From the UHGV virus genome UHGV-0120889: a stretch of 64,000 nt of DNA; one strand, given 5' to 3'. Below the pieces are notes generated by a model. The model did no database searches and was not told where the DNA came from. It saw only the letters and a program-made list of their open reading frames with translations. This DNA is from a virus. Positions 6,584 to 64,000 of the stretch are shown here, piece by piece. The translations under genes were made by a program, and so were the position numbers. Within the stretch, counting starts at the first letter, position 1, and every line of letters starts with the position of its first letter.

Positions 6584-6899
6584 CGTTTATGTTCGGGCAA
6601 GGTCGCTAGTCTTGCCCCGCCATTTTCAGGCAGCTGCATGTCTCCATGCAGACCAGACTATATCTTATAAGCGACAACAACCGCTTATCCTCCCGTTTCG
6701 AATCGCTTGATTCTACGTCTTTCGACTAGTCGTTGAACGTTCATCCTCTCGGATGCTTCGCTGCGGATTATCTAAATTAACACACTGTTACCATACCTTC
6801 GATCTCTCTTCGAAGCCTCTATCATGTTACCATGACAGGTTGGTGGTATTAATAGTAAAGATTTCCCCGCAATTAGGGAGGTTTTACGAGAGCTACAAA
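6584..6899 (-). ncRNA. group I self-splicing intron (ORF-less) in terminase large subunit gene
   Basis: Minus-strand hallmarks in canonical order: exon ends GAGGGU then UAA; internal guide GCUCUC (plus 6888-6893) pairs with exon end; P-like AAUUGCGGGGAAA (plus 6863-6875); R-like GUUCAACGACUA (plus 6723-6738); S-like AAGAUAUAGUC (plus 6656-6666); terminal G at 6584. Confidence 0.7.
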
Positions 6900-6902
6900 T
6901 TA

Positions 6903-7328
6903 ACCCTCATCGAAGCAAACCATGGTGTACTCAAGCCCTTGATGGTTAAGCTTATCTTGTACATACTCCATGTGGCAGTATTTTACAACAGCTCCCTTTT
7001 TGCTTCTATCCCACTTGCCAGTGTTCGGATCAAACCGTGGAAAAATGAACTTATGATCCTTCTCTCTGAACTTTGGCTTAATGTTTTCAGGCAGATCACT
7101 ATAAATAGCTACCGCTTTAGGCCATAGTCCACCCTCACCTTCCAACTGCGGGGTTGTTCTTCGGAACATAACCACAGAGCTGTGGGGGTCATCAATAATT
7201 TTAAGTGGCATCAATTGCAAGAGGAACGACTTGCCAGACCCTGCGGCACCGCCGATTACCAAAATATCTGCATCGTTTTCGAGGATCATCTTCTGCTTTT
7301 CAGAACACGGTCCGTAAATCTTAGACAT
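6903..7328 (-). CDS. terminase large subunit, exon 1 (N-terminal ATPase: Walker A and B)
   Basis: Walker A VIGGAAGSGKSF and Walker B MVCFDEG; frame hits TAA (6900-6902) immediately after the Gly codon, which is the first codon of the intron. Confidence 0.75.
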
Positions 7329-8431: not shown

Positions 8432-8508
8432 TGGTCTCCACGGAGTGATTCGAACACTCGACCTCCTGATCCCAAATCAGGCGCTCTACCAAGCTGAGCT
8501 ACGCGGAG
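8432..8508 (-). tRNA. tRNA-Pro (anticodon UGG)
   Basis: Hand-folded cloverleaf: acceptor CUCCGCG/CGUGGAG, D-arm GCUC..GAGC, anticodon stem CCUGA/UCAGG with loop UUUGGGA, T-arm GAGUG-UUCGAAU-CACUC, encoded CCA. Confidence 0.8.
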
Positions 8509-8519
8509 TATTTATTATT

Positions 8520-8594
8520 TGGTGGCCCTGGGTGGAATTGAACCACCGTCTGGCGATTATGAGTCGCTTGCTTGAACCTTCCAGCTACAGGGCC
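8520..8594 (-). tRNA. tRNA with anticodon CAU (Met or lysidine-modified Ile)
   Basis: Acceptor GGCCCUG/CAGGGCC, anticodon loop CUCAUAA, T-arm GGUGG-UUCAAUU-CCACC, encoded CCA; Met versus Ile2 cannot be told from sequence. Confidence 0.7.
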
Positions 8595-8595
8595 A

Positions 8596-8671
8596 TGGTG
8601 CTGATGGCAGGACTTGAACCTGCAACCTATTGATTACAAATCAATTGCACTACCAATTGTGCTACATCAGC
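8596..8671 (-). tRNA. tRNA-Thr (anticodon UGU)
   Basis: Acceptor GCUGAUG/CAUCAGC, D-arm GCAC..GUGC, anticodon stem AUUGA/UCAAU with loop UUUGUAA, T-arm GCAGG-UUCAAGU-CCUGC, encoded CCA. Confidence 0.8.
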
Positions 8672-8679
8672 AAAAAAGG

Positions 8680-8776
8680 TGCTAGGTGATGGAATCGAAC
8701 CACCTATGTATTCAACGACTACCTCGTCTATTTTCAGGATTAAAAATCCTCGCCCTTGCCAAAGGGCTTACCTAGC
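8680..8776 (-). tRNA. atypical long tRNA-like gene (about 97 nt), anticodon uncertain (candidate UUU) or pseudo-tRNA
   Basis: Perfect 7-bp acceptor GCUAGGU/ACCUAGC, D-arm GCCC-UUUGGCAA-GGGC and T-arm GGUGG-UUCGAUU-CCAUC, but about 30 extra nt between a short AGGA/UCCU stem (loop UUUUUAA) and the T-arm; no encoded CCA. Confidence 0.4.
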
Positions 8777-8874
8777 TCAGTATGTTGACCATGTTGCTAG
8801 TCGGCGATGACGACTGTAACATTTGATAATCCGGTTCTGCTTCCGGCTTTCGCTTAATTACAAGGTCAACAATA

Positions 8875-8965
8875 TGGCTGAGGGTAATGGAATCGAACCA
8901 TCATCGAGTCATCCTCAACGGGACGGTTTTCAAGACCGCTTGAGCACCATTGCTCCCTACCCTCA
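8875..8965 (-). tRNA. tRNA-Ser (anticodon UGA), long variable arm
   Basis: Acceptor UGAGGGU/ACCCUCA, anticodon stem GCGGU/ACCGU with loop CUUGAAA, long variable arm, T-loop UUCGAUU, discriminator G plus CCA. Confidence 0.7.
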
Positions 8966-9079
8966 TTTATAAACAATACTGATAATGACACTGATTTTCG
9001 AGCAGTTAGTGACTAGTATAAACGACGATAAATATCAATGCCATTATCTGTATGATTTATGCATTTAAAACTATAAATT

Positions 9080-9166
9080 TGGTGGGGAGTGGTGGAGTCG
9101 AACCACCCGAGTCGTAATGACAATAGATTTACAGTCTACACCGCTACCTCTACGGGATAACTCCCC
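9080..9166 (-). tRNA. tRNA-Tyr (anticodon GUA), long variable arm
   Basis: Acceptor GGGGAGU/ACUCCCC, anticodon stem GUAGA/UCUAU with loop CUGUAAA, T-arm GGUGG-UUCGACU-CCACC, encoded CCA. Confidence 0.75.
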
Positions 9167-9170
9167 AATT

Positions 9171-9245
9171 TGGCACCCCGTACTGGACTCGAACCAGTGT
9201 CAACGGCTTAGAAGGCCGCTGCTTTATCCACTAAGCTAACAGGGC
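9171..9245 (-). tRNA. tRNA-Arg (anticodon UCU)
   Basis: Acceptor GCCCUGU/ACGGGGU (two G.U), anticodon stem GCGGC/GCCGU with loop CUUCUAA, T-arm ACUGG-UUCGAGU-CCAGU, encoded CCA. Confidence 0.75.
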
Positions 9246-50638: not shown

Positions 50639-53102
50639 CACACAATTAGCTGCCCGGCTAAAGTGCTGGAAGCACCTATAACACATCTTTCAACTAAATT
50701 TCCTACCACCACAATCACTTACCTCCCACACATGACTGTTTGCTTGTTTAGTGAGCAGTCATGCCTTGACATTCTTGCCTATCTTGATAAAATTAAGTTC
50801 TTCTCTTTTCTTTTACCGAGTAATTCGGGTTTTCTGTTCTCTTCGGTTTGAAGGGGTATGGAGATACACCTGAGTGAACAGGGTGAACAACCGAACCTTT
50901 GGCTATGGCATTAGCATGGCGAAGCGGACGGGTGACGAAAGAGGGGCCGGAGGACACCAGTCACTGCCATATGATATATGGGTGATAACCTGAAGAGTCT
51001 GAATAAGTGTTTAAGTACCAGTCAGAGGAAAAGGTGAATGGTAGCCGAAGGGGGAGGGGGGTTTCTTGTATCTTTAATTTGTATATTATGTATACACTTG
51101 TAAACCAACACCATCTGAATTTGTTTACCACAGAAAGCGGATAGAGACAAATATTACCTATTAAACTTGAATTATTTATAGAAAATACCACAACACCACT
51201 TAAGTATTTGATTTTACACATAAATCCTACAGATATTCACCCTCCATATTTAACATACTTGTAACATATTCCATACTCTACCTGTCTGATCAATTTCCCC
51301 AACTACACCCACCATATTTTCCCTGTCTGTACCACCCCTGACCCGCCGGGAGTCCCGTCATATCTGGCTTTCCAGCAAATATCACACCCACAAATATCAT
51401 TGCCTGAAGAGGGTTTCATCCCATAATACATGCCTTACCTGAAGAGCGCTTCATACACCACGTAAATTTTTTAATTGACCCCCTCCCCGCCGCCGGAGAG
51501 GTTGTCTTTTCCCACACAGACCTGAAGAGTCAGTCAGAAATATCTGAATGGACCCAATTCTGCCCTGTCATGAGCGGTAGCGACTGGAGTGCTGCCAGGC
51601 GGACGAAATGGGAATACTTCTCATTCTTATAATAATTCTCAAATATCGAGGCAGTGAGGAAAATTAATAGGTGAGGCCGTTCACACAGTGGCACAACATT
51701 TGCAACCTATCTTGTGGGGGTGAATGAGAATACCTATCATTGTGAGAATAGTTATCATTACGGGCAATTTAACATAATACCCATTATGCGCACCACTGGC
51801 GATCCATACAGGGATTGATAACATGAGTTACAGTTTACGCATATAACAATCATATTTCTTACTATTTGTGTGGGATATAGTTAGCAGCCGATAGATTAGA
51901 TATTGACCTGTGGACTTCCAACCATCTAGACGTCTAAACGCCCACACAACAAGGATTATACATACATTACTGAATGTAAACAGGGCCGCAAAAATGCTAC
52001 CATACCAGTTTGTAAATTTTTCATGCAGCACTTGACAAAGAGGAGGAAAACTTGTCTGACATAATGTGACCTAACTGACACAACATGACACTTTTACACA
52101 CCTATTAGTTTACACACTGGATTGTTTACATTCCTGATTGTTCACATGCTAACCATTTACATGATTGACTGTTTACACACCGATAATCAGCCATGCCATT
52201 CGTTTGCATGACAATAATTATACATGACAATAATCGCACTGATTATAATTAGCATGACATAATATAAAAGCAGGGCAACTATTAGCAGATCTATAGTTGC
52301 CTTGCTTGTCATGTCATGATTAACTAAATACAAGGCAACTATGATCTGATTAATAGTTTGCAGACAAACTATCACGGGGGTGATGGTTACTGCTTTTATA
52401 TTATGTCGCGACTCCGTCGCGCCATGCCATTCGTTTGCATAGTTGCCTTATTGTTACAGGTAAAATAATTGTATTGTTAATTATTTCTTATCTTTCTATT
52501 AGTCATCTAATGATTCCAGTTAGTATAGTAACGTACAGTAAACATTAGACGACTAAAGATTTCTCTGCTTATGATAACCTAACGTGACAATTTCAGACTG
52601 TTTACGAAAAATGTTGACACCTGAGCTGATTTATGTTATGCAGTTTACACGAATAATTATTTTATGCAGGTATTGACTATTCCGTTATTCTATGGTTGGA
52701 ATAAATACTTAGCAGACTATAGAATGGTGAGCGTACGTAAATTCTGAGATCTGTCGGCTATAGTTATACTCGATTTTTCACGTAGAACACGCTTTTTGGT
52801 TTGTGTAAGTGTATGACTTATAAAGATTTTTAGTTGTTGACAAGATATTGGAGATGTGCATCAGATTAAATTTTGTGCAATAGCTACATTACGTGCACTT
52901 TTGGAAGAAAAAACGTGTAAAAATGGCCCTGCTACCACACAATGAAAGATTATGCAATAGTTATTTTATATGTATATTTGTACAGTGTGTGGGATTAATG
53001 GCTAGTCAATTATTCCACTTGCCAGGTAGGGCCGTTTATGGTAGGAGAAGAGCAGACAAAAAGAAAGGGGCCTTTAAGCCCCTTGATAATTCAATTAAGA
53101 AA

Positions 53103-53990: not shown

Positions 53991-54263
53991 TTACTTATGA
54001 CGGCAGAGTTCAAGCGTTTTTAATTGATAATCTTCCTCAGCTTGGAGTACGACCGCCTCGATCATTTCGTTGGCATTGTTAAAGCCATAACCTTTAGCGA
54101 ACTCATCCGCGCCACCTTCGTGATCATGTTCTGCGTTCATCGCTTCCACAAAATGGAATTCCAAATTGTTGAGGTAGGGGCTTGATGTTCCGTCCTCTTT
54201 TTCGATGAGATCCCAAATAGCATTAAAACGTGATTCGACTTCTTGATTAATCCAGCTTGACAT
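53991..54263 (-). CDS. hypothetical protein
   Basis: 90 aa acidic. Confidence 0.4.
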   Translation of the reverse strand: MSSWINQEVESRFNAIWDLIEKEDGTSSPYLNNLEFHFVEAMNAEHDHEGGADEFAKGYGFNNANEMIEAVVLQAEEDYQLKTLELCRHK

Positions 54264-54480
54264 AGTGTTTTCCTCTCTCCTGGTTGTTGTGTGGGCACTT
54301 TTGCCCCTTCAAGATAAATGTTACCTCACCCCATGGCAGATGTCAACGGTTTTTATAGTTCTTATATGACAGGCAGGCCCGGTGATTGTCTCCCCCTGTT
54401 CCCAAGTGCCGCCCGTTTAATAAGAATAGCAAAAGGGGCCGAACAAGTCAACCCCAAAATCAGTACCAAAACACTTTTAT

Positions 54481-54792
54481 TTATACGGTCCGATCATTGG
54501 CCTTTGTCCAGGACCTGGCGATCCGTTTCCCGGTCACCTGGAACGGAGGCTGCATTGTGTGTAATGAGTCCAGAGTAAGGGAGGACCGTTTACGGCGTAT
54601 CTTCAGGATCGCTAACGTATTGTCCATCTCACGGCCAGGTCCTGGGCGGTATGGTGTGCCTCCAGCGTTAAGGTTGATGATCTCATGTATTGAGATCCGG
54701 CGTTGTTTTGCTTCCGCATCTTTGAAGATAGCCAGCGGAGGCGCTATGCGTTGCCGATACCAATCTAAAACGGTTGGCGTAATAGCGATCAT
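54481..54792 (-). CDS. hypothetical protein (coding status uncertain; GC-rich locus)
   Basis: ATG overlaps stop of upstream gene (ATGA), but region also carries 11-bp inverted repeats CCAGGACCTGG/CCAGGTCCTGG (54507-54517 and 54631-54641). Confidence 0.3.
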   Translation of the reverse strand: MIAITPTVLDWYRQRIAPPLAIFKDAEAKQRRISIHEIINLNAGGTPYRPGPGREMDNTLAILKIRRKRSSLTLDSLHTMQPPFQVTGKRIARSWTKANDRTV

Positions 54793-54980
54793 ATTTTACC
54801 CCCTATGTAGTCCGGTCGGTTTTTCTCTGTCATACGCTTAAGCAATTCTTGCATGTTGCTTATGGCTTGTAGTGTATCCTCTTCAAGGGATGAATCAAGA
54901 TAATCAGGATCATTCTTCACCTTGCAATGATTATGATAACGCAGTACCGCCAGTACTTTTTTAACTTCTTCCGCTGTCAT
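54789..54980 (-). CDS. hypothetical protein
   Basis: 63 aa. Confidence 0.35.
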   Translation of the reverse strand: MTAEEVKKVLAVLRYHNHCKVKNDPDYLDSSLEEDTLQAISNMQELLKRMTEKNRPDYIGGKI

Positions 54981-63218: not shown

Positions 63219-64000
63219 GATTTTTTATCCTCTCTGTTAATTGGTGTGGTGTTGTTCACCTTGCGAGGATAAGAATAACAAGAACTGTCCGAGCTGTCAA
63301 CCATTAGTTAAAATTATTTTTTGGGTAGAATTCTCCAGCCGCCGCCCCTGCCAGGTTAACCATCATTTTTCGTACTCTTCTTTATGTTCCAACGCTCCCG
63401 CCATAGCCTTTTCAACCAGGGCGATAGCCTCAGCGTCATTAATAGCTACATTTTCCAGGTGGATCATATTACCTTCCATTTTTGTACCTCCTCTTCAATT
63501 GTTACCTATCCTATAGCATAGGCCCACCAGGTTTGCAAGCCTTCATTCTCTCCTACCTGGTCAGTTAGGCCCTGCCAGGCTGGCCCCGCCAGGTTGCAGC
63601 GGTCAGCGCATCAGGTTAGAATTTTTTTTTTTTTTGAAAAGTGTTGACAGCGGCCCCGCCAGGTGGCAAAATATACCTATCGAAAGGACGGCAGGCACCG
63701 GTGACGGGGGAGACAATCACCGGGCCTGCCCGTTATTCTGCAAACGAGAATGATTATCATTCAAAATTCTAAATGAGAACTCCTCGCATTTAATAAATTT
63801 AATTAGCACGCTAATTACCCTCCGTAACAATTTCCTATAAAATAGTATCCACTAAAATATTCCCATATAGAAATTTTAAAAATCCATTTCTGAAAACGAA
63901 AAATCGATTTCGTCCCCAAAAATTTCAGGTCGAGAGCCGGAACGATTTCCAGAAAATCCGATTCAGAAAACGAAAAACAGATCGAGTACTGAGAAATTTA

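Follow-up and report, generated by a model that had tools for sequence, protein, structure and literature searches.

A GC-rich ORFan gene with a probably incidental inverted repeat, and an adjacent conserved non-coding element, in an rV5-like coliphage

In T4-type phages, ORFans flanked by promoter-early stem-loop (PeSL) motifs are reshuffled through recombination (Arbiol et al. 2010, PMC2839356; Comeau et al. 2014, PMC4122927). The locus described here resembles these motifs in several ways. It has a GGGG...CCCC stem-loop terminator fused to a sigma70-like early promoter (both of which are consensus pattern matches only), it lies in a plastic early region amid small ORFans, and close relatives differ cleanly in having or lacking the ORFan next to it. 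However, the locus belongs to Vequintavirinae rather than to T4-type phages, its -35 element lies inside the hairpin, and a conserved core beside the cassette has no counterpart in the PeSL description. The likeness is one of function, and we do not claim membership of the PeSL group.

Two other components of the locus are related to annotated features. A promoter downstream of the ORFan is equivalent to promoter P168 of phage rV5 (record annotation; rV5 paper, PMC3606486). The ORFan itself belongs to the protein family phrog_13681, examples of which are RudolfGeigy bas52_0127 (QXV84206.1), nimi_72, CR9_171 and KaOmega gp175, all of them hypothetical proteins without an assigned function. The gene is the same gene as in these members, with no difference, and it is already known, dozens of phage records carrying it as a hypothetical protein. 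The explanation of the GC-rich stretch is mundane and the finding itself of low interest, and only the adjacent core may repay experiments, as a modest lead.

The window, by which we mean the whole stretch of 64,000 nucleotides that was analysed, was compared with deposited phage genomes. Over the 1.3 kb around the gene it shares 99.7% identity with Escherichia phage RudolfGeigy (Bas52), and over the same 1.3 kb its identity to many other Vequintavirus (rV5-like) phages is 92-99%. Judging from these identities, the source phage is a Vequintavirus, an rV5-like coliphage. The locus in the records of relatives is an unbroken array of small minus-strand genes annotated as hypothetical proteins. 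GenBank records of the series MG0656xx (e.g. MG065646 and MG065647), which are labelled 'Campylobacter phage' with C. jejuni as host, are 98-100% identical to the E. coli Vequintavirus locus and look like mislabelled or contaminant coliphage genomes.

The features at the locus are as follows.

54789..54980, minus strand: upstream gene of 63 aa, phrog_9599; its stop codon and the ATG of the 103-aa gene overlap (ATGA), sequence ...GGGGGTAAAATATGATCGC
54481..54792, minus strand: protein-coding gene of 103 aa, a phrog_13681 ORFan (open reading frame, PHROG match, homologues, CDS in relatives)
54425..54455, minus strand: hairpin resembling an intrinsic terminator, GGGGTTGACTTGTTCGGCCCC followed by the T-tract TTTTGCTATT, directly after the 103-aa gene
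54423..54451, minus strand: sigma70-like promoter overlapping the terminator (consensus match only, 9/12, TG present)
54318..54346, minus strand: sigma70-type promoter TTGACA-17-TAACAT (10/12 matches), the equivalent of rV5 P168
54293..54307, minus strand: small GC hairpin GGGGCAAAAGTGCCC in the 5' leader of the next gene, just upstream of its ribosome-binding site; conserved in rV5
53991..54263, minus strand: next downstream gene, 90 aa, phrog_7287, corresponding to rV5 ORF167
54386..54841, plus strand: antisense open reading frame of 151 aa, spurious; the frame is open only in the lineage of the window
54318..54578, plus strand: open reading frame of 86 aa, spurious; stops in relatives

A GC-rich gene on the minus strand

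The preliminary description singled out positions 54300-54800 as more GC-rich than their neighbours, which is borne out (0.522 against a window mean of 0.427). GC content in 300-bp windows peaks at 0.52 at 54500-54799, between flanks of 0.40-0.45. The 103-aa open reading frame (312 bp) has a GC content of 0.522 and a GC3 of 0.558, where the means for 116 greedy non-overlapping open reading frames are 0.427 +/- 0.033 and 0.429 +/- 0.060, respectively. By this local check of GC and codon positions, the gene lies about 2.9 SD above the mean GC of open reading frames, and a GC content this high is reached in only 0.46% of 312-bp windows. Thus, the suggestion of a gene with atypical composition holds, in that this is a genuine minus-strand gene and an outlier for its genome in both GC and GC3. 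Elsewhere in the window, the plus-strand segment 11254-11466 is the sole segment of this size class, that of an open reading frame, with a higher GC content (0.559) than the 103-aa gene.

The high GC content is carried by codons rich in Arg, Ala, Pro and Gly, together with the high GC3. Homologues of the gene have GC contents of 0.54-0.57, whether their surroundings are at 0.40 (Klebsiella phage FKP3) or at 0.48-0.50 (Certrevirus). Because the gene is GC-rich even within GC-poor relatives, the high GC content is intrinsic to the gene. It may stem partly from the very basic protein and its Arg/Ala/Pro/Gly-rich sequence, and partly from past residence in Certrevirus-like genomes with a GC content of about 50%.

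As the preliminary description had stated, open reading frames are present on both strands, but the ambiguity of coding status that it saw there is settled in favour of the minus strand by codon-position bias and an open frame. Nine diverged homologues were collected, from Cronobacter phages CR3, CR8, CR9 and PBES02, Pectobacterium phages DU_PP_I and P7_Pc, Klebsiella phages FKP3 and KaOmega, and Enterobacter phage F1M1E, and their amino-acid identity to the protein encoded in the window is 64-77%. When these are taken together with the window gene (n=10), the minus-strand frame is open in every sequence at a length of 102-104 aa, and the sole length difference is an in-frame indel of two codons, while the remaining five frames contain stops. 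Pairwise nucleotide differences at codon positions 1, 2 and 3 number 738, 569 and 1210, and the codon changes comprise 766 that are synonymous and 939 that are non-synonymous. Positions 54481-54792 thus show an open frame, third-position bias and an in-frame indel, all of which mark protein-coding sequence.

The start codon of the gene overlaps the stop codon of the upstream 63-aa gene and is preceded by a GGGGG Shine-Dalgarno sequence, and the overlap implies translational coupling with the upstream gene. The open reading frame is also annotated as a CDS (hypothetical protein) in the records of relatives. We are highly confident from the comparison of homologues that the gene is the one on the minus strand at 54481-54792 and that the plus-strand open reading frames are antisense artefacts. 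The overall reading that we prefer, and consider very likely, is that of a real minus-strand accessory gene in which the inverted repeat discussed below is incidental.

The 103-aa protein matches the phrog_13681 HMM with an E-value of 2.4e-57, its residues 1-103 aligning with positions 1-101 of the 102-position profile, and it is 100% identical to deposited proteins of at least 13 phages. The family is small, with 15 clusters in a search of 5.8 billion proteins and 21 representatives in an exhaustive HMMER search, wherein identity falls to about 30%. Two distant members could be traced to their contigs. Both are of the same length and lie within arrays of small early phage genes, and in one of them (L032) the gene again overlaps the preceding gene. 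There is no match to the 103-aa protein in Pfam, NCBIfam, PADLOC or PDB sequences, and no relative with a known function was found by sequence or by fold. The PADLOC defence models, which give no match to the 103-aa protein, give a single match of 11.6 bits (E 0.03) to a distant member.

All 27 aligned family members are strongly basic, with a pI of 10.1-12.0 and a net charge of +9 to +18, and the window protein has a pI of 11.2 and a net charge of +10. AlphaFold with a deeper alignment predicts an all-helical protein of six helices with a mean pLDDT of 72, in which a C-terminal unit of three helices (residues 54-101) is modelled with confidence at a pLDDT of about 90. A helix-turn-helix like that of sigma70 region 4 was considered for the C-terminal half and is unsupported, as neither a match to an HTH profile nor a fold match was obtained. 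The most likely role for the protein, which we put forward tentatively as a candidate, is that it binds nucleic acid or an acidic host factor in host take-over. Large lytic phages encode small, basic early proteins for host take-over, and the 103-aa protein shares with this class a size of about 100 aa, a very basic composition, an early ORFan setting and its dispensability in relatives. However, it has no sequence or structural similarity to the characterised proteins of this kind, and the likeness is one of class only.

A gene and terminator that come and go together

In rV5, a different terminator comes immediately after the stop codon of the upstream gene, and the 103-aa open reading frame is missing in its entirety, along with its own terminator. 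Of the two break-points in the alignment of rV5 with the window, one coincides with the upstream stop codon and the other falls inside the terminator/promoter motif. A tblastn search finds the protein in 55 phage records, of which 36 show at least 95% identity and 19 show 60-80%, whereas the adjoining intergenic DNA is common to 256 records. Most Vequintavirus records match only positions 54264-54434 of the window. Wherever the gene is present, its neighbours and the ATGA overlap are identical. On these comparisons, the gene and its terminator are a precise presence/absence cassette that rV5 and most relatives are without, a pattern compatible with gain or loss. The earlier proposal of an acquired segment therefore stands in the weaker sense of such a cassette, and gain and loss are inseparable from these comparisons.

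The terminator-like hairpin (54455..54435) was recognized in a consensus scan and has eight pairs, five of which are G-C, and a loop of five nucleotides. The same hairpin lies 3' of the gene in the Certrevirus homologues. Overlapping it, the promoter-like site at 54423..54451 places TTGACT inside the hairpin, followed by a spacer of 17 nt and the extended -10 sequence TGcTATTCT. An equivalent promoter is kept in rV5, Certrevirus and Stephanstirmvirinae despite their differing hairpins. The second promoter, at 54318..54346, is predicted from its match to the consensus and to P168 to drive the next gene.

One might instead doubt that the GC-rich segment is a resident phage gene and view it as a recent foreign or mobile import, whether a moron, a homing cassette or a transposable one. 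The composition of the gene, about 2.9 SD above the mean of open reading frames, is what such an import would be expected to show, as is its absence from rV5 and from most Vequintavirus records, and its closest diverged copies sit in Certrevirus phages of about 50% GC. However, three lineages (Vequintavirus, Certrevirus and Klebsiella phage FKP3) have identical synteny, in that the upstream gene, the ATGA overlap, the downstream hairpin and the core are all the same. This fits an old resident that has been repeatedly lost or exchanged by homologous recombination. The flanks of the cassette carry no direct or terminal inverted repeats, the cassette encodes no nuclease, integrase or transposase domain that would mark it as a mobile element or homing cassette, and the gene is GC-rich within GC-poor relatives as well. 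We therefore regard a recent import as unlikely.

In the preferred reading of a resident accessory gene, transcription would take place early, by host RNA polymerase acting from the upstream array of sigma70 promoters. The gene would be dispensable, and homologous recombination may swap it in and out, with exchange between the conserved core and terminator/promoter motifs bordering early ORFans. This proposed mechanism of exchange is the one described for PeSL cassettes in T4-type phages. A clean ORFan cassette beside a composite terminator/promoter in rV5-like therapeutic phages would extend the PeSL picture beyond the T4-type phages.

The inverted repeat and the antisense frames

The GC-rich stretch contains an inverted repeat of 11 bp, as had been reported, although at slightly different coordinates. 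The left arm CCAGGACCTGG is located at 54508-54518 rather than at 54507-54517, and the right arm CCAGGTCCTGG at 54635-54645 rather than at 54631-54641, which amounts to offsets of 1 and 4 nt. At its full length the repeat is a perfect 12 bp, with arms separated by 114 nt.

54508..54519: left arm, CCAGGACCTGGC; the coding strand encodes A-R-S-W in a conserved stretch of the protein
54634..54645: right arm, GCCAGGTCCTGG; the coding strand encodes R-P-G-P-G in a loop that is variable in length and sequence

The loop that contains the right arm is replaced and shortened in CR9, CR3 and PBES02. Each arm has the form CCWGG-N-CCWGG and is thus nearly its own reverse complement. CCWGG is the Dcm site. 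Such sites are concentrated in the 312-bp open reading frame, which has five, and at 2.0 per kb the window as a whole shows no avoidance of them. RudolfGeigy encodes a Dcm-like C5 cytosine methyltransferase at a position that falls outside the window (MZ501102, 66858-67622), and the presence of this enzyme in a close relative means that the CCWGG sites may be methylated.

An inverted repeat of at least 11 bp occurs in 31 of 2000 dinucleotide shuffles of 54300-54800 (1.6%) and in 61 of 3000 synonymous-codon permutations of the open reading frame (2.0%). There are seven loci with inverted repeats of at least 11 bp in the 64-kb window, against 3.2 +/- 2.0 in shuffled sequences. With about three expected per window, one eye-catching case somewhere is to be expected. 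Repeats are denser in another part of the window, 52187-52450, which is AT-rich (GC about 0.34) and carries a perfect inverted repeat of 18 bp (52256-52273 / 52390-52407) in addition to inverted repeats of 11-12 bp (52293/52332 and 52332/52439).

Perhaps the repeat marks a structured RNA, such as a riboregulator or an element for mRNA stability or processing, that lies within the open reading frame or takes its place, and the GC content reflects structural selection. The predicted fold of the mRNA is dominated by the 12-bp helix, which closes the minimum-free-energy structure of a 166-nt segment (-59.1 kcal/mol, z -3.26, with none of 200 shuffles as stable), the fold of the whole open reading frame has a z-score of -2.8, and the repeat is locally rare by chance. 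However, the helix is missing from all nine diverged homologues. At the corresponding position, all of them lack inverted repeats of at least 10 bp, and their longest repeats (7-9 bp) are located elsewhere. Their folding z-scores range from -2.4 to +1.0, with seven of the nine folding no better than shuffled sequence, and the two that fold somewhat better, DU_PP_I (z -1.9) and P7_Pc (z -2.4), do so via other pairings. A helix conserved among the nine homologues is thus not found. Rfam 15 gives nothing at gathering score at the locus, and with permissive settings over 54200-54850 it gives only a chance match of 13.5 bits (E=9). In addition, one arm encodes part of a protein loop whose length varies and the other covers conserved codons, the substitutions across the region are clearly biased by codon position, and repeats of this kind are expected by chance in a window of this length. 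A structured RNA, which the preliminary description had also offered for the repeat-bearing region, is therefore very unlikely.

The inverted repeat is most likely incidental, or at most a lineage-specific mRNA helix. It may have arisen as a by-product of two codon strings that are built of CCWGG, and although it is eye-catching it is confined to the lineage of the window and is not a conserved feature.

That the plus-strand 151-aa frame is a real gene, or that both strands are coding, merits practically no credence, since this frame, which is the longest at the locus and would be selected by a naive longest-ORF rule, has one to three stops in all nine other homologues, lies antisense to an all-minus gene array where it partly covers two minus-strand genes and also crosses the terminator and two promoters, and is annotated in none of the relatives' records examined.

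A conserved non-coding core beside the cassette

Two copies of a conserved non-coding element are present in the window.

54359..54417, minus strand: conserved non-coding element between the two promoters and 3' of the 103-aa gene, with its core GGCACTTGGGAACAGGGGGAGACAATCACCGG at 54379-54410
63687..63743, plus strand: second copy of the core, on the opposite strand, with a TTGACA promoter-like site upstream and a stretch free of open reading frames downstream

The core, GGAGACAAnCACCGG, spans 30-60 nt and is far more conserved than its surroundings. It is nearly invariant in Vequintavirinae, it occurs as the slight variant GAAGATAATCACCGG in Stephanstirmvirinae, and it is also found in Certrevirus. 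The 56 nt at 54379-54434 are 84-89% identical in the Stephanstirmvirinae phages PaulScherrer, ESCO13, PHB05 and Serratia KKP_3264, which have genomes of about 150 kb and in which the flanks are unalignable. The core is present in unclassified phage contigs that have almost no megablast-level DNA similarity to known phages, and in one enterobacterial contig, which also carries SdsR/RyeA. A long-core pattern gave no match in one genome each of 185,579 bacterial and archaeal species.

There are two or three copies of the core per genome. A sequence-only model (R1) based on 20 copies detects exactly two loci in a full genome equivalent, 54359-54417 on the minus strand (63 bits, E 2e-18) and 63687-63743 on the plus strand (57.5 bits, E 1e-16), and RudolfGeigy has two tandem copies at the locus that matches the latter. 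Further loci are found in contigs L035 (11374-11564), L033 (2157 and 5587), L032 (4380), L040 (7345) and L021 (8463-8492). In every copy, the core starts roughly 20-35 nt past a good sigma70-like -10 hexamer. Another hexamer, TATTCT-like in most copies, is located exactly 10 nt after the core (11 nt in rV5).

RudolfGeigy has an annotated CDS of 29 aa, bas52_0128, over the core (window 54343-54432, minus strand). This open reading frame is probably spurious because it contains a 1-nt indel in rV5 and because PaulScherrer uses another frame. A search of the locus, the related loci and the second copy against Rfam, at gathering and at permissive thresholds, gives nothing relevant. The rV5 and Certrevirus papers make no mention of the core, and a literature search found no rV5-group transcriptome, no Fur box in lytic phages and no description of the core.

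A conserved 5' hairpin before the core (CYTG-GNRA-CRGG and variants) was considered. Its folding energies are no better than those of shuffled sequences (mean z -0.26), and the covariation that is apparent by eye amounts in RNAalifold to only seven pairs with a covariation energy of -0.45. We therefore do not claim this hairpin. The whole 66-nt element folds with a mean z-score of -1.2 over 20 lineages (p 0.004) and of -0.9 in antisense, with inconsistent registers, and its two copies in the window have z-scores of -2.9 and -4.7. A sigma54 promoter (GG-N10-GC), an ops element and a ykkC-III-like RNA were each rejected for the core, by eye, on spacing or sequence.

The Fur box, with the consensus GATAATGATAATCATTATC, is a mark of Fur-regulated promoters. 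Palindromes that resemble it, as judged by eye against the consensus, are found past the core at a fixed distance in most lineages, as with TGATAATCATTATCA in L033 and GAGAATGATTATCATTC at 63746-63762 of the window. In L039, L042 and L038 the palindrome lies about 25 nt after the core. Near-perfect versions (AATGATAATCATTATC; ATGAGAATGATTCTCAT) occur in several unrelated phage lineages (L033 at 2185-2205, L039/L042/L038, and L035 at about 11480). No such palindrome follows the core copy at 54359-54417. The likeness to a Fur box is seen at the second core copy and in relatives, and it concerns the core and not the 103-aa gene. It suggests putative iron- or Fur-linked control of a phage promoter.

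The surroundings of the second copy, window 63520-64000, are poor in open reading frames on the strand opposite to the surrounding genes. They include a run of 13 T residues, a TTGACA promoter-like site at 63644, the core copy with its palindrome, and then scattered motifs resembling GAAAACGAAAAA that continue to the end of the window. Tandem Repeats Finder detects no array in this region, which might represent an origin or a gene for a small RNA.

From its conservation across these phages, the core is a real, conserved and unannotated non-coding element. That it is specifically an undescribed regulatory element of phages is a possibility we raise with less than even confidence. The core could serve as a 5' leader or small RNA, as a specialised and possibly iron- or Fur-responsive promoter, or as the promoter of a transcription-primed replication origin, and none of these candidate roles is described for it in Rfam or in the papers on the rV5 group. 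As a candidate for a regulatory or origin element that has so far gone unrecognised, it is concrete and testable, and it is shared by two subfamilies of large coliphages that are used in phage-therapy collections.

Two RNA features unrelated to the core are present near the other end of the window. A group I intron (Rfam RF00028, 84 bits) is located at 6634-6912 on the minus strand. A cluster of seven tRNA genes lies at 8432-9245 on the same strand, and it includes a 99-nt ARAGORN call at 8678-8776 with a 4-base anticodon loop, which is possibly an intron-bearing or degenerate tRNA.
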